From positions 1-26,866 of the forward strand of contig CAZGTS010000001.1 of NCBI GenBank assembly GCA_964528865.1: a stretch of 26,866 nucleotides of DNA. The letters are read 5' to 3'. Of the stretch, positions 1,882-26,866 are shown in pieces; positions within the stretch are counted from its first letter, which is position 1; the number at the start of each line of letters is the position of its first letter. The notes under the pieces were generated by a model. That model was not told the DNA's origin. It ran no database searches and saw only the letters and a program-made list of their open reading frames with translations. Position numbers and translations under genes: made by a program. The stretch is from Candidatus Woesearchaeota archaeon. Lineage in GTDB: Archaea > Nanobdellota > Nanobdellia > Pacearchaeales > GW2011-AR1.

Positions 1882-2424
1882 ATGAAGAGTGTGAAAAAAG
1901 AAAATAAAGAAAAAATTATGGAGATGATTAAGAAAGCAGGGGATGAAGAATATAAGACTGAGTGGGATGCTGAAGGGAGTATAGGAAAGCAAAAGAAAAA
2001 GTCTGAAATGAAAAAGGGAAAGAAGTCAAAGGGACAAGGAGCGAGGTTTGAGTTAAAGGTTAGGGAAGATTTAGAAGAAAAAGAATGGATTGTGGATAAG
2101 TGGACTAATAATGTTGGTTTGGAAGAAAACAAGCTTGTAAAGGCAAAAAGAAAATATAATCCTTTCAGAAAGATGCTAATTGTTGGAACAGGTTTTCCTG
2201 ATTTTATCTCAATTAAACATGTTCATGGAGAAATGTATAGTGTTATTGGAGTAGAAGTTAAAATGAACGGAACTCTTTCAAAAATAGAAAAGCAAAAATG
2301 TGCTTGGTATTTACAAAATAAAATTTTCTCTCAGATTTGGATTGCAAGGAAAGGAATCAAACGTGGGCAAATTAAATATGTGGATTTCAAAGAGAAGTAT
2401 AGAGACAAGTATAATAAAACTTAA
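1882..2424 (+). CDS. PD-(D/E)XK nuclease, Holliday-junction resolvase Hjc-like
   Basis: KGQGARFE (Hjc-like G..xE start), GFPDFI and VEVK catalytic motifs; ATTAAATA 29 nt upstream. Confidence 0.65.
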   Translation: MKSVKKENKEKIMEMIKKAGDEEYKTEWDAEGSIGKQKKKSEMKKGKKSKGQGARFELKVREDLEEKEWIVDKWTNNVGLEENKLVKAKRKYNPFRKMLIVGTGFPDFISIKHVHGEMYSVIGVEVKMNGTLSKIEKQKCAWYLQNKIFSQIWIARKGIKRGQIKYVDFKEKYRDKYNKT

Positions 2425-2448
2425 ATATCCTTTTTCTCTTTATTAATT

Positions 2449-2691
2449 ATGACAACTCCTCAAGAAATGAAAAGGAAGGTAAAAGAACATGAAGAAGCAT
2501 TAAGGAAAAATCCTCTTTTAGCAAAAGGGTTAGGAAATCTTATTGAAGAACAAATCATATTGATTTTAAAAAATTCAGGAGTAACGCAAATTAATGTTCC
2601 TACAGATGAAGAATATCTTTTAATAAAAAAAGAATTAGGCAGAAGAGAAGGGAAATATACAAGAAGACCTCTTTCTGAAACAAGATATTAA
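2449..2691 (+). CDS. Hypothetical protein, 80 aa
   Basis: Own TATA-like CTTAAATA at 2420-2427, 29 nt before the ATG; codon style matches neighbours. Confidence 0.65.
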   Translation: MTTPQEMKRKVKEHEEALRKNPLLAKGLGNLIEEQIILILKNSGVTQINVPTDEEYLLIKKELGRREGKYTRRPLSETRY

Positions 2692-2753
2692 ATAAATTAC
2701 TCTCTAAAACATATCACAATAAAACTTAAAATCATTAATTTCTTCTACATTTT

Positions 2754-3293
2754 ATGAAGTATTTACTTGGAATATTTTTTATCCTGGTGATTTCACAAGT
2801 TTGTGCTGTTTGCGAAAGTGGACAAATTGATATTAATTCTGCTTCTTTAACAAAATTGGATGAATTGGGAGGGATAGGACCTGTGAAAGCGCAGGCGATA
2901 ATTGATACACGGCCTTTTGATTCTGTGGAAGATTTGATTGATGTTTATGGAATTGGGAAAATTACTTTAGAAAAAATAAAAGACCAGGGCTTGGCATGTG
3001 TTAATAATGAAAAAGATGAGCCAGAAGAATTAGAACAAGTAGACTTTGTAAAAGAAGTTCCTTCTTATTTGGAAAAAACAGAACCTTTAATTCCTCAGAT
3101 TGTTGAAACTAAAAAAGAAGACAAACCAGAAATTATAACTTTAAATTCCCAAACAAAAGATATAAAAAGTGACGATACCAAAAAAAAATTAGACAAGAGC
3201 GATTGGGCAAAGTATGGATTTATTGGTTTTTGTGTTTTGCTTGGGTTTTTGTTTATTTTAAAAAAGCGAAAAGCTCACAGCGAATTTGATTAA
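2754..3293 (+). CDS. ComEA-like helix-hairpin-helix DNA-binding protein, signal peptide and C-terminal TM anchor
   Basis: IDINSAS..LDELGGIGPVKAQAII...RPFDSVEDLIDVYGIGKITLEKIK is the ComEA HhH_3 signature; hydrophobic N-terminus and C-terminal TM followed by KKRK. Confidence 0.85.
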   Translation: MKYLLGIFFILVISQVCAVCESGQIDINSASLTKLDELGGIGPVKAQAIIDTRPFDSVEDLIDVYGIGKITLEKIKDQGLACVNNEKDEPEELEQVDFVKEVPSYLEKTEPLIPQIVETKKEDKPEIITLNSQTKDIKSDDTKKKLDKSDWAKYGFIGFCVLLGFLFILKKRKAHSEFD

Positions 3294-3294
3294 A

Positions 3295-3729
3295 ATGGAA
3301 ACAAAAAAAATTATAGCAGTAATGATTTTAGAAATTATTGGGAAGCCTGCAGAACATTTAGTAAAAACTCTGGAACAAATAATTAAGGATATGGGCGAGG
3401 AAAAAGGCGTTAAGATAATCAGTAAAAAAATCAGTGAACCTGCAGAGTTGAAAGATAGGAAAGATTTTTTTACAGCTTTTGCAGAAATTGAGATTGAGAT
3501 TGAAGAAGCATTACAACTTGCAATTTTAATGTTCAAGTATATGCCTGCACATGTTGAGGTTGTTTCTCCTGAATCGCTTGTTTTAAAAAACAACGAATAC
3601 GGGGATATTCTCAGTGAACTCACAAGACGGCTCCACAAGTATGATGAAGTGGTAAGAGTCGTTCAAATGGAAAAAGATATTCTGGAGAAAAAGTTAAAGA
3701 GTATTTTAGAGAAAAAAGAAGATAAGTGA
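3295..3729 (+). CDS. Hypothetical protein with C-terminal coiled coil (start revised from TTG 3286 to ATG 3295)
   Basis: ATG lies 1 nt after the ComEA stop; alternating beta/alpha pattern then a charged heptad-rich tail. Confidence 0.75.
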   Translation: METKKIIAVMILEIIGKPAEHLVKTLEQIIKDMGEEKGVKIISKKISEPAELKDRKDFFTAFAEIEIEIEEALQLAILMFKYMPAHVEVVSPESLVLKNNEYGDILSELTRRLHKYDEVVRVVQMEKDILEKKLKSILEKKEDK

Positions 3730-5318: not shown

Positions 5319-7160
5319 TTATTTCCCAATATCTTTTAACTTTTTAAGAACATCATCTAATTCTGATTTTGGTCTTTTTGTAGGGGTTGGTCTTGTTATA
5401 TGTGTTGGTCTTGATTGTAAAGGTCTTCTTCTAGAAGGAGAAATCATTCTATGAATAGGTCTTCTCAGAGAGGGCCTTGTTAAAGGATGTCCTGAAGGTG
5501 TTTTTGGTTTTCTTTTGAATTTAGATTTTATCCTTAACCAAAAAGGCCTTAATTTATCTCTGAAAATTATTCCCATAACAACCAAAACAATTAAGATTAA
5601 TAATACCCAAATCCACCAATAACTTTTAGGTTCTTCAGTAGTTCCTCCACCGCTTCCAGATGTATCGTCTTCACAGCAAACTTCTCCAGGATAATCACAT
5701 TCGTCTGAATTTTTTTCTTCACTACTTAAACAAGAATCTCTACATGTTCCTCCATCTTCTTCACATTCTGATTGAGGAACCTCTGTTGATTCACAATCTC
5801 CAATACAACAATCATAAGTATCAAATGTTTCAATATTTGAAATACTACATATTTCATCTGAGTCACAGATTTCTCCACCAATTTCCTCGCAAGTTTGTGA
5901 AGTAGGGCTTGTGTCACAGCATATTTTTGATCCAGAACAACTAAACTCATAAGCACTTAATTCACTTCCTCCAATATCTGAACAACTTGTTTCAAAAATA
6001 CAATAACCATCTACATCTTCACAGTTAAGAGAGTCTGTTCCTCCACCCCCTCCATTTCCTCCCCCAAGATCTTTTGGCCAAATAGAATACAAAATAAATG
6101 CAGTGTTTCCAATATTTCCCTGCCAGCACCCTTCAGCATCCTGAACATCTAAAAGCCAGTTCTTAGAGTTTGTTTTTTCTATTGGATTTTCATCTTGAAA
6201 AGGAAGCAATGCCAAAGCAGTGTCATAATATTTGTCTCCTGAAGCAGACCACCACATACTACCTTGTTGTTTTGATAATAATATTGTGCGGAAATTTGTA
6301 TCTGAAGGTTCTATTAAATACAAAAATGCTTCAGGGATGTATTGTGGATTGTCTTCTGCCATTGTAACTAAATAAGGTTTGTAAAAAGAAATATCTTCAT
6401 CTAAATAATTTAATACAAATGCTGCCCACAGGCTTCCTTCATAGTCACAAGTATTTCCTTGTTTGAAGCAGGAGAAATCAACTTTCTCTGTTGTTATTCC
6501 GTCAGCAGATGCAGAAGAAGTTTTATCTGAAACATATAATATTGGAGAGTCTGATTTTTTATATAATAATGTTGTAAGAAATGATTGGTCGCATGAAATA
6601 GAGAATTCTTTATTATAACAAGAGGGATTAACTTCTAAAAAATAATCTTCATAAGGGGTTTCAGACAAACTTAAACAAGTACTTCCAGATATAGAACTTA
6701 TTTTTTTATCAAGTCCGATAGTTATAGAATTTGATGAACTAATAGATGTTATTGTACAAGAATAAGGTTCAGATATTGTTTGAGTGTTTTCAATTTCCAA
6801 GTACCATTCAATACCTAAAGGGATTGTATTTTGTGACAATAACCATCTTGTTGCGTTGCTTACATTAACATTCATATTATCCAAAGCTAAAACTGCCTGA
6901 GAAGTTGTTTTTAGATTGCATGAAGATGAAGGCCAACATTCATTATTTGCTGAATTAGAAATAACTTCATCTTTACATTCTTCAATTGCTAACAAAGAAA
7001 AGATTTTTTCTTCGGAAGAAAGAGAATTACAATTTCCTACCACTTTATTTTCAAGACAAGTATATGCAACATTTATTTTATCATCAACTTCATCTGCAAT
7101 TATCAAAGGAATAAATATTAAAGAGATAATTAAAATGCTTAGTAATACACTTCTTTTCAT
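5319..7160 (-). CDS. Membrane-anchored surface protein with prenyltransferase/squalene-cyclase-like alpha/alpha repeats, Cys-rich modules and Arg/Pro-rich cytoplasmic tail
   Basis: Signal peptide; repeats such as TSQAVLAL..ATRWLLSQN and DTALALL..KNWLLDVQDAEGCW (QW-repeat like); three to four Cys modules; TM WWIWVLLILIVLVVMGIIF; TTTATAAA 29 nt upstream. Confidence 0.7.
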   Translation of the reverse strand: MKRSVLLSILIISLIFIPLIIADEVDDKINVAYTCLENKVVGNCNSLSSEEKIFSLLAIEECKDEVISNSANNECWPSSSCNLKTTSQAVLALDNMNVNVSNATRWLLSQNTIPLGIEWYLEIENTQTISEPYSCTITSISSSNSITIGLDKKISSISGSTCLSLSETPYEDYFLEVNPSCYNKEFSISCDQSFLTTLLYKKSDSPILYVSDKTSSASADGITTEKVDFSCFKQGNTCDYEGSLWAAFVLNYLDEDISFYKPYLVTMAEDNPQYIPEAFLYLIEPSDTNFRTILLSKQQGSMWWSASGDKYYDTALALLPFQDENPIEKTNSKNWLLDVQDAEGCWQGNIGNTAFILYSIWPKDLGGGNGGGGGTDSLNCEDVDGYCIFETSCSDIGGSELSAYEFSCSGSKICCDTSPTSQTCEEIGGEICDSDEICSISNIETFDTYDCCIGDCESTEVPQSECEEDGGTCRDSCLSSEEKNSDECDYPGEVCCEDDTSGSGGGTTEEPKSYWWIWVLLILIVLVVMGIIFRDKLRPFWLRIKSKFKRKPKTPSGHPLTRPSLRRPIHRMISPSRRRPLQSRPTHITRPTPTKRPKSELDDVLKKLKDIGK

Positions 7161-7285
7161 AATTGAATTAGTTAATTGTTGTTTATAAATATTTTGAGAA
7201 ACTATCTTAAAGGTTATTTTTAGAAATATTTAATGAAAAAATTTTAAGTAACGAAAGACTTAAATAATAATAGAAATTAAAGATA

Positions 7286-7362
7286 TTAAGGTAACAGGTA
7301 TTGCCTTAAGTCTTCGGACATACCGCTATGTATCCCAGCTGTGTTGAACACTGGGAATTTTT
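7286..7362 (+). ncRNA. Structured 5' leader / candidate small RNA upstream of the NYN gene
   Basis: ~48% GC island in AT-rich DNA; stem TTAAGGTAA/TTGCCTTAA (7286-7309), GTC-TTCG-GAC tetraloop (7310-7319), TCCCAG/CTGGGA stem (7333-7356) followed by AATTTTT; TATA CTTAAATA at 7259-7266 predicts a start near 7288. Confidence 0.55.
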
Positions 7363-7365
7363 AAA

Positions 7366-7992
7366 ATGGTAAAAAGTAACATCAAAGATGTTTCATGTTT
7401 TCCTCATTCTTCAGAAAAAAGAGTTTCTATTTATATTGATGGTGCTAATTTTTATGGCGGGCTAACTTCACTTAATAAAAATTTTAGTGATTTGAATTTT
7501 GATTTTGAAAATTATATAAGATATTTATGTAAGCAAAATAAAGTAGTTAAAATATATTATTATAATGCTCATGTAAAAAAGAAGATAAACGATAAAATAT
7601 GGGCTAAACAAAAAAAGCTATTTGATAGATTGCACAAAATTCCTAAATGCAAGGTTAGTTTATGCACAAGAAAATCTCGTTTGAATATTTTAGGAGAAGA
7701 ATATCACACGATTAAGGGAGATGATATTTATTTAGCTTTAGATATGATTGAAGATTGTTATAATAATAAATATGATAAGGTAATTTTATTTTCGGGAGAT
7801 GGAGATTTTACAGAATTATTAAAACGAGTTAAGAAAAAAGAAAAAGAAGTTGAGGTCTGTTATTTTAGAAATTGCTCCTCAAAAGTTTTATTGAATCAAG
7901 CAAATAAAATTCATTTGATTAATAAGAAAATTACAAATAAGTTTTTTTATAGGGTAAAGAAAGTTAAGGAAAACTTTCTAATATCTCTTTAA
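7366..7992 (+). CDS. NYN-domain (LabA/DUF88, PIN-like) ribonuclease
   Basis: IYIDGANFY, KGDDIYLALDM and LFSGDGDF acidic motifs; 3' end overlaps the convergent lipase gene by 29 nt. Confidence 0.9.
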   Translation: MVKSNIKDVSCFPHSSEKRVSIYIDGANFYGGLTSLNKNFSDLNFDFENYIRYLCKQNKVVKIYYYNAHVKKKINDKIWAKQKKLFDRLHKIPKCKVSLCTRKSRLNILGEEYHTIKGDDIYLALDMIEDCYNNKYDKVILFSGDGDFTELLKRVKKKEKEVEVCYFRNCSSKVLLNQANKIHLINKKITNKFFYRVKKVKENFLISL

Positions 7993-9267
7993 CTTTTGAA
8001 TAAACTTTTGGAACTTTTGAAGGATGAATTAAATTTTGATGAAAAGTATCTATCCAATCAACCTTATTTCCAGTAAGAATAATATTTTCTGCTCCGTCTA
8101 AAGTCGCACTATCAACAGAAACAACCTCGTCATCAGAAGTTCCATCTGTTCCTTCACAACAATTTCCAATAATAGAATAATATTCAACATTTCCATAAGT
8201 TTCGTCATTAGAATTTAAATTAATCACAAAATCAGATTCATGCCACATCTCCCCACATTCTTCTCCCGAATGCCCCTCCTTAAATAAAGGAATTCCTGTT
8301 TGGCATAAAGTGGAAAGTAATCCTCCAACTCCAACAACATAAGCACTCTCTTTTCCATCAACCCCGTGATGAGGTGTCCCAATTGTTATTAATGTGTAAA
8401 CATCATCTGCTCCGCCTGAATTTTTTATATAAGAACGAGAAACCAAACCCCCATTGAATGAGCAACAAGTATTACTTTATTTTTTCCAGTGTGATGTTTT
8501 ACAATTTCAACCACAGTACTTAATCTTTCACCATACTCTTGAATTGATTTTTCATCTTCACTATTAATAGTAAAATCATCCGCTTCAACTTCTCCTTTAT
8601 AATAAGTCATTCTAACTGAAATTGGTTTTTCTAATTTGCCCCACAGTCCTTCACTAATTTCGTTTTCATCTGAATTTGGATTAATTACTCCTTTATCTTC
8701 CACTAATCCGTCTCCATCTAATTCCTCCTGCATTTCTGTAAACGCATTTATACTATAAGCAGTTGTTTCTTTATTATCAACGCTATGTCCATGAACAAAA
8801 ATAATTGGATAATTTTCATCTGAAGTATCTGCTTCTAAATTATAAACACATTGTTCTGTTTCTTCGTCGCAATAACCTGCTTCACATTTACAATCATTTG
8901 GAGAATTAAAACAATTCTCTTCTTTTTCTATTTCACAAATTCCGTTTTCACATTCACTAAAACTACAATCCTTCCAACAAGCAGAATTGCACTCGCCAAA
9001 ATTACAAACATTATCTCCACAAAAAAAATCTGCTCCGCAACTTCCACAATCTAAAGAACATTCTAAACAATCTTCTTCAATTTGGCAATAGCCATCGCCA
9101 CACCAATCACAATCTAATTTACAAGAACCAATTTCATCTTCAATACATTTTCCATCACCACAAAATTTCACATTTCCAGGATTAACCAAAATAAGATTTA
9201 TAATAATCGTTAAAACAACAATAATTAAAATTCCTCCAACAAGTTTCTCTAAAAAAGAAAAGTTCAT
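7964..9267 (-). pseudogene. Membrane-anchored Cys-rich alpha/beta hydrolase (lipase/esterase), frameshifted at the nucleophile elbow
   Basis: ORF 8425-9267 ends AHSMGVWF and ORF 7964-8446 continues VSRSYI. One extra C in the C5 run (8448-8452) restores AHSMGGLVSRSYI and a 434-aa protein with FVHGH, TIGTPHHG, DEVV and FH motifs. Confidence 0.85.
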
Positions 9268-10326: not shown

Positions 10327-11613
10327 TCATTTATCTTTAGATTTCTTTTTATCTGGTTTATTCTGTTGGTAATTTTTCCGAACAACATAGTTCACTGGAT
10401 TTTTTATCATCTTGCAAAAATTGTCTGGTTGGCAAACGCCGATTCCTTCATAGAATTCTTTACAGTTTTGGGGCATAATTGGTTTTCTTGCATAGCTCCA
10501 AGAAAGTTGGGATGTTATGTAACCTTGCGTTAAAGGAGAGGCATTTTTTTTATTCCATTCTTCAATTTTCTTTTCAAGTTCTTCCTTGTCCATTCCAATA
10601 GAACGGAACAAATTTATCAAAACAAACAATGCTCTTTTTTTCCCATCTACAAGTCCCTTTAATATATTCTGCACACAAGGAGGAAAATTTTCTTCAGACA
10701 AGTTGTCCAGTTTGATTGGTTTGAAATTTGCATATTTTCCTTTTATTTTTTCTTTGTCTTCTCCTGATTCAATTTCATTTTGCTTTGCCCAATCAAGTGC
10801 TTGCATTAAAAGTTCAGAGGCTTCTCCTTCTTTAGAGTCTGGCATAAAGTTCTTAATTTTTATTTTCATCGGGTCTGCATCTTTTGGCTGGAATTTAGAA
10901 ATTTTTTCTGGGTCTAAAACAACACTTGCTAATGCTGTTTTCTCGTGGAGAGAATAAGGCATTCTAAATAAATGCCGAGAGGAAACTAAAACCAAATCAG
11001 GCATTACTTCTTTTGGGGCTTGGAAATCTTTTACATATTTGTTTGGTCTTTCCAAGTCGCTGATTTTTTCAATTAACTGGGCTTTTGTTTTTTCCATAAT
11101 GTATTGGGTTATAATTCTTGGATATTTAGGGAACATTGTTGAAGTTTTTATCTCATTGATTTCTTTTGGGAAAGCTTTCCATGGAACAATTATGTGAAAT
11201 CCTTTTGAACCTGAAAATTTAATTCCGATGTTTTTTACTCCGTGAAATTTTAATATTTGAATTATTACTTCTGCAGAAATTTTTGAATAATCAATGTATT
11301 TGCTGTCAATGTCAATTATTAAATCCCAGCCAGTTCGCAGTTCATTTGTCTGTTGGGGGTTCATGCCTGTTACAATGTTTAAAGGTTCTTGCCAAATTTC
11401 TTCTGAACAATGAAAAGATGTTGCACCTTTTTTAACTAACTCTAAAATGTCTCCAATATACTGAAATATATCTGGGCGTTTTCCAAAACCTTCAAAATAC
11501 CTTGGGCAAATTTCTCTATTTTTTGAGAATTCAAAAATTGCTTTTTGAACTTCTGGTTTAGAATAATATATATGAATTATATTTTTTATTCTTTTTTCTT
11601 TGTGTGAAAGCAT
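10327..11613 (-). CDS. priS: DNA primase, fused catalytic (PriS) and Fe-S (PriL C-terminal) domains
   Basis: AEP motifs DLIIDID, FSGSKGFH and RMPYSLHEKT, then a PriL-CTD-like FPPC...C...C...C cluster in one 428-aa chain. Confidence 0.9.
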   Translation of the reverse strand: MLSHKEKRIKNIIHIYYSKPEVQKAIFEFSKNREICPRYFEGFGKRPDIFQYIGDILELVKKGATSFHCSEEIWQEPLNIVTGMNPQQTNELRTGWDLIIDIDSKYIDYSKISAEVIIQILKFHGVKNIGIKFSGSKGFHIIVPWKAFPKEINEIKTSTMFPKYPRIITQYIMEKTKAQLIEKISDLERPNKYVKDFQAPKEVMPDLVLVSSRHLFRMPYSLHEKTALASVVLDPEKISKFQPKDADPMKIKIKNFMPDSKEGEASELLMQALDWAKQNEIESGEDKEKIKGKYANFKPIKLDNLSEENFPPCVQNILKGLVDGKKRALFVLINLFRSIGMDKEELEKKIEEWNKKNASPLTQGYITSQLSWSYARKPIMPQNCKEFYEGIGVCQPDNFCKMIKNPVNYVVRKNYQQNKPDKKKSKDK

Positions 11614-11696
11614 GTTAATTAAAATAACTGAAGATTTATATTAATTACTATGTTCAGAACAACAATATTTAAAAGATAAATCATATTCTAATTTGT

Positions 11697-12422
11697 ATGT
11701 TAGTTAAATTGGAAAATCCTGCTTTATTGTCAAAGGCGATTGATATTATTTCGGAGCTTGTTACTGACGCGAGAATTAAGGTGAATGAGTTTGGAATGAG
11801 TATTACTGCTATTGACCCTGCGAATGTTGCGATGGTTGGATTTAGGTTGCCGAAGAGTGCTTTTTCTCAGTTTGAGACCGGTAATGAGGTTTTAGGTGTT
11901 AACTTAGATAATCTGAAAAAAATTTTGAAAAGATGCGGAGTTGGAAGTTCGTTGATTTTAGAAAAAAAAGAGAATCAATTAGAAATTAAAATTTATGACA
12001 AAATCAGGAGAAATTTTAGTTTGAATTTAATTGAAATTGAAAGCGAAGATAAGGAAATGCCAAGTTTGGATTTTAGTTCGCGGGTTGAGATGTTGTCGAA
12101 TTATTTTATCGAGGCTGTTGAAGATTGTGCGGTTGTTGATGATGCGTGTTCGTTTATTATTGAAGACGGTAAATTCATAATTAACGCGAAAAGTTTGAAT
12201 TCTGCGCGTTCTGAATTTTCAAGTGACGAGGTGAAAATTGAAGCTGAAAATTGCAAGTCAAGATATAGTTTAGAATATTTGCAAAAATTTTCTAAAGGAG
12301 CCAAACTTTGCGATAAGACAATTTTGAATTTTGCAAACGAGCATCCGTTGAAGATAGAATTTAAGGCTGAACATTTTGATTTGAGTTTTATTCTTGCTCC
12401 ACGCGTTGAGACCGAGGATTAG
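11697..12422 (+). CDS. pcn: DNA polymerase sliding clamp PCNA
   Basis: AIDPANVAMV, GVNLDNLKKILK, SRYSLEYL and HPLKIEF...FILAPR match archaeal PCNA; TTTAAAAG 29 nt upstream. Confidence 0.97.
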   Translation: MLVKLENPALLSKAIDIISELVTDARIKVNEFGMSITAIDPANVAMVGFRLPKSAFSQFETGNEVLGVNLDNLKKILKRCGVGSSLILEKKENQLEIKIYDKIRRNFSLNLIEIESEDKEMPSLDFSSRVEMLSNYFIEAVEDCAVVDDACSFIIEDGKFIINAKSLNSARSEFSSDEVKIEAENCKSRYSLEYLQKFSKGAKLCDKTILNFANEHPLKIEFKAEHFDLSFILAPRVETED

Positions 12423-12453
12423 CGATTTAAATATCTAAAGCATTAATGAAAAT

Positions 12454-12587
12454 CGCTTGTCCGAGTTGAGGATTAACGCGAAGGAGAAATTAAATATATT
12501 AATACCGAGAGTTAGTCCGAGTTGAGAACTAGCACGAGAGAAGCAGTATAATCCAGTGACGAGTGCTGGGCTGAGTTGAAGATTAGC
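12454..12587 (+). repeat. Array of three hairpins with an invariant GAGTTGA loop at 54-56 nt period
   Basis: Loops at 12463-12469, 12519-12525 and 12573-12579, each closed by a different but complementary stem; a fourth degenerate half-unit overlaps the PCNA stop. Confidence 0.7.
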
Positions 12588-26485: not shown

Positions 26486-26610
26486 AAAAGTAAATCAAAG
26501 ATTTTCATTCGTCCGCCCAAGCGTGGTCGAACGAAACCTAAGCGGTTTTTTGGAATTTCCCTTCCTGTTCCGGTGAAGCGGTTTCTTTATTGCAATCCGA
26601 AGGAAACCGC
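26486..26610. repeat. Cluster of REP-like hairpins / probable bidirectional terminator between convergent genes
   Basis: AAATC-AAA-GATTT (26492-26504), REP copy 4 (26506-26534), AAACC/GGTTT and GCGGTTTC/GAAACCGC (26578-26585/26603-26610). Confidence 0.65.
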
Positions 26611-26614
26611 ACAT

Positions 26615-26866
26615 CTACACTTTCAAATGAATAGTAATTGTATCTACAACTATTTTTGGTCTGTATCTTATTCTGTTCTTTGTCTTTTCCTCTATTAATT
26701 CTATAAAGCCAAATCTCTCTAAAAGTTTGATATCATCATTCACAGATTTAAATCCTCTACCTAATTTTTTAGCTAACTCATAAATTGACTTGGGTTTTTC
26801 TGTTTTTATTGTGTGTAAAATCCTGGCTTTCTCATTACTCAAAAGCTGTCTTAAAGCTAAAACCCC
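26615..26866 (-). CDS. Winged-helix/HTH transcriptional regulator, COG4190-like (5' end outside the window)
   Basis: The frame stays open to the window edge (GVLALRQLLSNEKARIL); KSIYELAKKLGR.FKSV..DIKLLERFGFIEL is an HTH plus wing. Confidence 0.75.
   Translation of the reverse strand, partial: GVLALRQLLSNEKARILHTIKTEKPKSIYELAKKLGRGFKSVNDDIKLLERFGFIELIEEKTKNRIRYRPKIVVDTITIHLKV

Follow-up and report, generated by a model that had tools for sequence, protein, structure and literature searches.

A stretch of 26,866 nucleotides (nt) from a Candidatus Woesearchaeota archaeon (assembly GCA_964528865.1, contig CAZGTS010000001.1, positions 1 to 26,866; the whole stretch is hereafter called the window) encodes a LabA-like NYN ribonuclease, whose gene is preceded by an archaeal promoter and a structured leader. 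We analyzed this leader and found that it belongs to a pseudoknotted RNA of ~70 nt, which stands at the start of the NYN transcript unit in >180 related loci. Almost certainly, the NYN enzyme has in this leader an RNA of its own, devoted to its control or acting as its partner.

Promoter and leader of the NYN gene

The TATA box upstream of the NYN gene (CTTAAATA) begins at position 7259, 107 nt from the ATG at 7366. A [TC]TTAWAWA box also occurs at seven further genes of the window, in each case exactly 29 nt upstream of the ATG, and because of this spacing their transcripts are considered leaderless. For the NYN gene, the position of the TATA box therefore predicts transcription from A7288 and a leader of 78 nt. 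These values agree with the initial annotation of the window, which had reported the TATA box at 7259, a leader of ~78 nt, and a 29-nt spacing at most genes that lead a transcription unit. Among 149 distinct homologous loci, the distance from the TATA box to the first A of the first helix (P1) was exactly 29 nt in 126, from which we infer that the RNA begins directly with P1. The leader had also been described as a GC-rich island, and the GC content of 7288-7357 was indeed 45.7%, as compared with 15% in the remaining intergenic sequence, 24% in the NYN coding sequence, and 31.5% in the window.

An internal promoter giving a leaderless NYN mRNA was rejected, as no TATA-like motif is present 29 nt 5' of the ATG, a position that falls inside the GC-rich P3 hairpin. 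Pairing between promoter and leader through a 9-nt complementarity (AAGACTTAA/TTAAGTCTT) was also rejected; the complementarity is lost at other loci, where the promoter varies. Short Logan contigs with a homolog do not start at the predicted transcription start and were uninformative as transcript evidence.

The leader (7288-7362) comprises, in order, P1, an H-type pseudoknot, the P2 hairpin, a conserved linker, the P3 hairpin, and a U-run that stops 4 nt before the NYN ATG (Table 1). The topology is that of a classical H-type pseudoknot, in which loop 1 is the invariant CA, loop 3 holds P2, and zero nucleotides separate the second strand of the pseudoknot from the return strand of P1. The initial annotation had proposed a 9-bp hairpin with GGTA (7297-7300) in its loop, a C(UUCG)G tetraloop, and a terminator-like stem followed by a T-run just before the ATG. 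The hairpin is present in the window, with arms at 7286-7294 and 7301-7309, and the comparative data back seven of its pairs (7288-7294/7301-7307). The tetraloop is part of P2, with C7312-G7317 as its closing pair, and the stem and the T-run correspond to P3 (7333-7356) and 7358-7362. Every coordinate in that annotation proved correct. Folding of the single sequence gave only modest z scores relative to shuffles (z = -3.0 for 7280-7368 and z = -1.9 for 7288-7362); comparative evidence was decisive for the predicted structure.

Table 1. Positions of the leader, the NYN gene, and related elements; positions are those of the window unless a locus is named
Feature	Position	Strand	Details
Archaeal promoter	7252-7266	+	BRE-like (TFB recognition element-like) CGAAAGA, then TATA box at 7259-7266
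Predicted transcription start	7288	+	first P1 base; from TATA-to-start spacing
P1 hairpin	7288-7307	+	AAGGUAA (7288-7294) with UUGCCUU (7301-7307); loop CAGGUA; C7295 and A7296 invariant
Pseudoknot 5' strand GGUA	7297-7300	+	within P1 loop; partner 7321-7324
P2 hairpin GUC-UUCG-GAC	7310-7319	+	7310-7312 with 7317-7319; located in pseudoknot loop 3
Pseudoknot 3' strand UACC	7321-7324	+	partner GGUA 7297-7300
Single-stranded linker GCUAUGUA	7325-7332	+	G7325, G7330, and U7331 invariant among 71 loci
P3 hairpin, class 1	7333-7356	+	UCCCAG, bulged C7339, UGU, loop GUUGA, ACACUGGGA; terminator-like
U-run, 5 T	7358-7362	+	part of the A/U-rich spacer that joins P3 to the start codon
NYN ribonuclease gene	7366-7992	+	LabA-like, COG1432-type, 208 amino acids (aa); PF01936
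Overlap of NYN and convergent hydrolase open reading frames, 29 nt	7964-7992		3' ends; hydrolase frame 7964-8446 on the minus strand
P3 class 1 (window)			UCCCAGYUGUG-UUGAA-CACUGGGA
P3 class 2			CCGGYUAUUAC-UUCG-GUAAUACCGG
P3 class 2b			CCGGUUUUGC-UUCG-GCAACGCCGG
P3 class 3			CCGGUUCUGGRC...GYCAAGRCCGG
Hairpin plus U-run without pseudoknot	L064:1900-1990, L066:2920-3000, L173:5140-5260		also L073 and L074, upstream of NYN match
RtcB-adjoining loci			L005, L143, L128 (class 1); L203 (class 2); L122 (class 3)

Covariation, distribution, and novelty of the leader RNA

Relatives of the NYN protein were scanned in one genome per species, giving 78 loci, ~70 of which carry the RNA element directly upstream. 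A conserved structure upstream of NYN homologs, which the initial annotation had named among the checks on its proposal, was found, and it was accompanied by covariation. For the covariation analysis, the first 52 nt of 71 loci (64 distinct sequences) were aligned with MAFFT. Across the 14 pairs of P1, the pseudoknot, and P2, standard pairs accounted for 93.6% of cells, and 11 of the pairs had changed on both sides. The covariation score was 0.368 versus 0.181 +/- 0.011 for shuffled alignments, with 0 of 500 shuffles reaching the observed value, and it fell to ≤0.093 when the partners were slid by 1-3 columns.

The pairing of GGTA with TACC (7321-7324), also proposed in the initial annotation, received particularly clear backing: the pseudoknot helix was 96.9% paired over the 64 distinct sequences, and 4/4 pairs changed on both sides (e.g., GC 49/UA 12 and AU 56/GC 5). 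P1 was 90.6% paired, with both-side changes in 4/7 pairs, the innermost of which occurred as UA 24, AU 23, UG 7, and GC 2. P2 was 96.4% paired and changed on both sides in 3/3 pairs, as in the replacement of GUC/GAC by UCUGC/GCAGA. The pseudoknot variants GGGA/UCCC, GGUA/UACC, and GGUG/CACC each occurred in more than one paralog class, and RNAalifold independently recovered P1, P2, and P3. On the strength of these alignments, we regard the predicted pseudoknotted structure as proven by covariation.

Conservation of the leader also exceeded that of the gene it precedes. Relative to the window, leaders of the same paralog class (class 1) showed 89% nt identity on average, whereas identity was 76% for the protein (aa) and 55% for third codon positions that are fourfold degenerate. 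The leader is therefore under strong purifying selection as RNA. An upstream reading frame or an N-terminal extension of the NYN protein was rejected as an explanation: many class-1 loci have CUG or UUG in place of the AUG, the frame to NYN is not conserved across spacers of 6-13 nt, and the changes are compensatory at the RNA level. Some public gene calls extend NYN through the leader; in P0009, P0032, and P0092 the spurious N-terminus MYPSCVEHWVF... is translated P3, and the same is true of VFPVITSVIP... in the calls at L155 and L173.

The association with NYN was also examined from the RNA side. A scan of a metagenome collection with an RNA-only pattern, meant to avoid circularity, returned at least 118 copies, 114 of them with enough downstream sequence and 4 others running off the contig. 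Among the matches listed, an NYN open reading frame (ORF) lay downstream in 111 of the 114 usable copies, and the three exceptions were L095, which has the remnant of a decayed NYN gene, L152, where the RNA itself is truncated, and L167, whose RNA is complete and stands alone. With a covariance model built on the 5' domain, one copy was found in the window (71 bits) and one copy per module, and over ~1 Mb of related DNA the model detected NYN-linked copies only. No match was obtained when a viral collection was scanned with the RNA pattern.

Variations on this arrangement were observed at individual loci. Many genomes hold at least two RNA-NYN modules, and tandem modules occur at L015 and L091. 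At L036 and L112, an ORF for an 86-aa membrane protein lies between the RNA and NYN, and L066 has a 60-nt insertion between P1 and P2 together with a truncated NYN. An intact RNA precedes frameshifted NYN ORFs at L111, L155, and L173. Complete stand-alone RNAs with their own promoter and no NYN gene behind them were found at L017 and L167. L017 (286-940) also encodes a leaderless NYN ortholog (65% identical) that carries SGGADF in place of the family motif SGDGDF, and the complete RNA copy with its promoter lies just downstream of this gene, with no gene following. Three modules with an archaeal promoter (L001, L035, and L018) belong to bins labelled Dojkabacteria, a lineage of the Candidate Phyla Radiation (CPR), or 'bacterium', for which mis-binning or mislabelling is likely.

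Searches for known families gave no assignment. Covariance models of Rfam 15 yielded no match on the whole window at gathering thresholds, and for three paralog classes they returned only noise at E up to 10, including weak antisense matches resembling C/D snoRNAs inside the NYN coding sequence. ARAGORN detected no tRNA or tmRNA, and no known ribozyme family in Rfam 15 matched. We found no description of this RNA in the literature on NYN/LabA proteins, pseudoknots or RNA motifs, type III toxin-antitoxin systems, and Pacearchaeota. We rate the leader RNA as a new family of RNA motifs. A regulatory or partner RNA of an RNase is of a known kind; what is new here is the fold, the lineage of the host, and the enzyme with which the RNA is paired.

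Paralog classes, the NYN protein, and genomic context

The NYN proteins fell into four paralog clades, with 76-83% aa identity within and 49-59% between clades. The pseudoknot domain is common to all four, while the linker and P3 are clade-specific (Table 1). The P3 class agreed with the protein clade for 138 of 138 nearest neighbours, and P3 and protein have diverged together. Within a class, P3 is nearly invariant, the loop and the bulged pyrimidine included. Compensatory changes are rare: A-U is replaced by U-A in L060, and U-A by C-G or A-U in L034, L036, L182, and L194; within class 1, such changes occur in L060, L011, and L015. Because the invariance includes the loop and the bulge, it exceeds the need of a plain terminator. 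Near-invariance within each class, combined with a switch between classes that accompanies the protein, argues for sequence-specific recognition over a generic terminator.

The spacer between P3 and the ATG measures 6-13 nt and consists of 59% T and 96% A/U, with no evident Shine-Dalgarno motif. T-runs of ≥4 were seen at 77% of loci and T-runs of ≥5 at 39%; the hairpin and a U-rich spacer are always present. Distant NYN subfamilies of the same archaea begin their mRNA with a GC-rich strong hairpin and a U-run but without the pseudoknot domain (Table 1), and the differences between the hairpins of L064 and L066 are compensatory. The same kind of hairpin and U-run precedes NYN genes in CPR bacteria. 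A hairpin and U-run before NYN genes may be a general theme.

The only significant Pfam match of the window protein was PF01936 (E = 3.1e-23; 83 bits, cut-off 24). Among its conserved residues, D25, N28, D120, D126, and D147 are invariant, and D145 is nearly so. The AlphaFold model (predicted local distance difference test score, 83) matched the LabA-like structure 2qip (E = 1.7e-11; TM-score of 0.85 on target length) and the NYN domain of MARF1 in Foldseek. The predicted fold is PIN-like, and the acidic residues of the active site are conserved. Two PADLOC models for candidate defence genes, 'NYN' and HEC-09, both matched the protein (E ~6e-16); neither Pfam nor Foldseek gave a match of the ToxN/AbiQ type. 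A related NYN enzyme is a non-specific Mn2+-dependent single-strand RNase (10.1101/2024.04.08.588522), and the distant NYN relative HEC-09 did not protect against phages when assayed (10.1101/2024.01.29.577857). A classification of the PIN superfamily in 2017 gave the function of NYN.COG1432 as unknown (PMC5499597).

Two parts of the window protein deviate from its relatives. It ends in a lineage-specific C-terminal tail, with homology stopping at ~7962-7965, and near its N-terminus it carries a 16-aa insertion (SNIKDVSCFPHSSE..., 7375-7422), likewise lineage-specific. The same insertion recurs almost letter for letter in the class-2 paralog P0116 (L202-L204), which comes from another sample and is 60% identical overall. 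Sharing of this insertion suggests that the 5' ends of paralogs have undergone gene conversion.

The names attached to NYN homologs and to related metagenome-assembled genomes point to a DPANN archaeon of the Pacearchaeota/Nanoarchaeota type. The window is chromosomal, as it carries genes for a fused PriS-PriL primase, PCNA, and an HD-domain protein. The primase gene (minus strand, 10327-12422 region) and the PCNA gene (plus strand) are divergent and share an 83-nt intergenic region. Synteny was seen between window genes at 1882-3729 and sequence flanking the NYN loci L003 and L040, and this partial synteny argues for chromosomal descent. Homology of the module with its relatives extends from the promoter (~7250) to ~7963. 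The initial annotation had taken the 29-nt overlap between NYN and the convergent lipase gene as a sign of an inserted cassette. The overlap is real, but it stems from the lineage-specific NYN tail and is no sign of an insertion. The flanks are unaligned even in the closest relatives, yet those are only 81-85% identical at the nucleotide level, a distance at which nothing follows about mobility. The cassette proposal is not supported.

Conservation of the NYN protein contrasts with that of its surroundings: between the window and L003, NYN is 85% identical versus 53-60% for its neighbours. Neighbourhoods of RNA-NYN modules vary, and the largest family of non-NYN neighbours was present in 9 of 183 loci. 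These neighbours include mobile or toxin-antitoxin-like genes (ParE, a DUF7557 ribbon-helix-helix (RHH)-like protein, and a tyrosine recombinase) and housekeeping genes, several with a link to RNA or translation (a TrmB regulator, an AP-endonuclease-2 protein, diphthine synthase, a PP-loop tRNA-modification enzyme, and archease/RtcB). At five loci of three classes, the module lies directly 5' of RtcB, with or without archease (Table 1); some of the gaps between module and RtcB measure 11-33 nt, and some are too short for a separate promoter. The adjacency may point to a function in the processing or repair of RNA, or it may reflect where the module stood ancestrally.

Downstream of NYN in the window, the lipase-like alpha/beta-hydrolase gene on the minus strand is split into a 280-aa ORF (8425-9267) and a 160-aa ORF (7964-8446), with the break directly after the AHSMG nucleophile motif. 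Both ORFs recur in L197 and L199, and the downstream fragment in the shorter contig L198; the split is therefore a real frameshift or pseudogene, or a case of recoding, and no assembly error. Two other GC-rich regions of the window were noted. A non-coding island after the last ORF (26496-26625) contains an 11-bp hairpin, folds better than shuffles on the plus strand (z = -2.3), and has no Rfam match, and the adjoining sequence (26615-26860) is 78% identical to part of L019. The region between PCNA and the next ORF (12440-12575) contains a 12-nt direct repeat (GTCCGAGTTGAG) at 12460 and 12515 and folds no better than shuffles.

Possible functions of the leader RNA and comparison with known systems

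The reading that we favour, with a probability of roughly 0.45, is that the RNA is a dedicated control element recognised by the NYN protein itself, acting by attenuation or feedback. Transcription would start at A7288, so that the RNA begins at P1. The first 37 nt would fold into the H-type pseudoknot, with P1 stacked on the GGUA/UACC helix and P2 carried in loop 3, and would be followed by the linker, the paralog-specific P3, the A/U-rich spacer of 6-13 nt with its U-run, and the AUG. P3 and the U-tract may hold NYN output low through a partial stop of transcription, through blocked ribosome access at an otherwise leaderless-type start, or both. The NYN protein would recognise the leader of its own mRNA; P3 would determine paralog specificity, the pseudoknot would be the part shared by all paralogs, and binding or cutting of the leader by the protein would feed back on NYN synthesis, as with RNase III, RNase E, and PNPase.

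Several observations are consistent with this proposal, among them the covarying structure that begins at the predicted first nucleotide, the linkage to NYN, the selection on the RNA, the near-invariant P3, the archaeal precedent of L7Ae, and the hairpin with U-run before other NYN genes. P3 tracks the clade and the pseudoknot remains constant, which is the pattern expected of RNA-protein co-divergence after duplication. Because NYN is more conserved than its neighbours and the window represents core chromosome, the enzyme fits a cellular RNase better than a mobile toxin, and the non-specific activity of a related enzyme makes tight control plausible. Other observations weigh against the proposal. 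Agreement between P3 class and clade in all 138 comparisons would also be expected from simple co-inheritance, and efficient termination is uncertain when a T-run of at least 5 is present at only 39% of loci. Stand-alone RNAs with a promoter and no NYN (L017 and L167) are odd for a purely cis-acting leader. Three further features are more typical of accessory, toxin-like genes: the frequent presence of at least two paralogous modules in one small genome, decay or frameshift of NYN behind an intact RNA (L066, L095, L111, L155, and L173), and highly variable neighbourhoods with ParE, RHH-like, and integrase genes.

These three features and the stand-alone RNAs would be accommodated if the RNA were an antitoxin-like inhibitor: most transcripts would end at the U-run, and the resulting abundant RNA of ~70-75 nt would bind and silence NYN protein made from rare read-through. 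If stress or infection halted transcription, a non-specific RNase would be released, with the activity known from the related enzyme. The gene order is that of ToxIN-type loci, the RNA is a pseudoknot proven by covariation, class-specific P3 hairpins could provide cognate specificity, the L017 gene that lost its leader has also lost one residue of the SGDGDF motif, and the protein fits the candidate defence models in PADLOC. We rank an inhibitor as the main rival of the control element and consider it less likely. Two defining features of type III systems fail, as neither tandem repeats of the RNA unit (Tandem Repeats Finder and a repeat search over 6900-8300 and 7100-7500) nor a ToxN/AbiQ-type toxin was found. 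The protein is strongly conserved within its class across many species (76-83% aa identity), above the level of neighbour genes, and paralogs of the same genome have near-identical pseudoknot domains (e.g., L001 and L035), which leaves no insulation between them. In addition, viral contigs lack matches to the RNA pattern, HEC-09 did not protect against phages, and at some loci the module lies directly 5' of the housekeeping genes RtcB/archease. The initial annotation had drawn an analogy to type III loci while noting that these use other toxin folds and tandem repeats. The parallel in layout (promoter, pseudoknot RNA, terminator-like hairpin, and RNase) holds up, and membership does not, for precisely the two reasons named in that caveat. 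Its broader proposal, an RNA-antitoxin or attenuator-controlled NYN system, covers the two readings that we rank highest, and the leader elements on which it was built are real, conserved, and tied to NYN. More generally, it is a tentative and rather doubtful proposition that a single-copy pseudoknotted RNA of ~70 nt, ending at the U-run, acts as a stoichiometric partner that directly neutralises or licenses NYN. The pair would then be a new RNA-protein module, either an RNA-antitoxin or an RNA-cofactor system with NYN as effector, widespread and present in multiple copies in Pacearchaeota-type DPANN archaea.

A riboswitch, in which the invariant pseudoknot is an aptamer that binds an ion or a small molecule (perhaps a signal derived from a nucleotide) and P3 with the U-tract is the expression platform that switches transcription or translation of NYN, would account for the compact conserved 5' domain with its invariant unpaired nucleotides (C7295, A7296, G7325, G7330, and U7331), for the class-varying hairpin and U-run that follow it, and for the reuse of the same 5' domain before several genes of one genome. 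This is improbable given that the RNA precedes one gene family only (NYN, 111 of 114 among the matches listed) and no metabolic or transport genes, that P3 is invariant within each class down to loop and bulge, unlike drifting expression platforms, and that no Rfam riboswitch matched even at E up to 10. Inspection of 71 to ~180 sequences, with no dedicated algorithm run, revealed no covarying alternative pairing between aptamer and P3. GGGA variants could form an antiterminator between the P1 loop and the 5' arm of P3, but this pairing was rejected as the loop covaries only with its pseudoknot partner. Slightly more improbable still is a different RNA function that accompanies the gene by linkage only, such as an independent small RNA, a 5'-terminal structure that shields the mRNA from 5'-to-3' decay, or a new self-cleaving ribozyme that trims the leader. 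The RNA's own promoter, a possible 3' end at the U-run, stand-alone copies, a structure that begins at the first predicted transcribed nucleotide, and invariant linker nucleotides would suit such a role; strict linkage to and co-divergence with NYN argue against an unrelated one, known ribozyme families did not match, and a generic protective cap would not be limited to one gene family.

To our knowledge, few structured cis-regulatory RNAs have been described in archaea, and we found no report of one in DPANN archaea in Rfam 15 and full-text searches. The motif described here offers >180 copies, clear covariation, a predicted 5' end, and strict association with a single enzyme family. Nucleases of the LabA-like NYN type (COG1432) are widespread, and the RNA partner is a candidate natural substrate for binding or cleavage with swappable paralog variants. 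If the RNA proves to be an inhibitor, the logic of RNA antitoxins would extend to PIN-like nucleases and to archaea; if it is an autoregulatory leader or a riboswitch, it would demonstrate tight gene control in organisms with mostly leaderless mRNAs.

Among known systems, the type III toxin-antitoxin systems (ToxIN, AbiQ/antiQ, CptIN, and TenpIN) share with the NYN module the succession of promoter, pseudoknot RNA, terminator-like hairpin with U-run, and endoribonuclease, all inherited together. They differ in having a tandem RNA array that is processed by the toxin, whereas the RNA here is single-copy, and in the ToxN/AbiQ fold of the enzyme as opposed to an NYN/PIN-like fold; the module described here is also archaeal, chromosomal, strongly conserved, and without viral matches. 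The preQ1-I, SAM-II, and fluoride riboswitches resemble the leader in the size and topology of the pseudoknot, in invariant unpaired nucleotides, and in a hairpin with U-run before the start codon, but the leader is linked to a single non-metabolic gene, has a class-invariant P3, lacks an Rfam match, and showed no conserved alternative pairing on inspection. HEARO, or omega-RNA, was first seen as a motif in 5' untranslated regions (UTRs) and was later shown to be a cofactor of the IscB nuclease. Like the NYN leader, it is structured, conserved, and located immediately before the ORF of a nuclease; the NYN leader differs in that it has no variable guide-like segment, is much smaller, and accompanies an RNase of another fold.

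In the Escherichia coli rne 5' UTR, rnc leader, and pnp leader, the gene product acts on its own UTR to set its level. These autoregulatory leaders share with the NYN leader a conserved structured 5' UTR on the mRNA of an RNase and, in the favoured reading, the action of the gene product on that UTR, and differ from it in that the NYN leader combines an H-type pseudoknot with two hairpins, belongs to another enzyme family, has paralog-specific P3 variants, and occurs in an archaeon with mostly leaderless genes. Within archaea, L7Ae is reported to bind a kink-turn in the leader of its own mRNA and thereby to autoregulate (PMC5539422, PMC6298567). That leader and the favoured reading of the NYN leader have in common that a structured 5' leader places the mRNA under the control of the archaeal RNA-binding protein it encodes, with a kink-turn in the one case and a pseudoknot in the other, and with proteins of different families.

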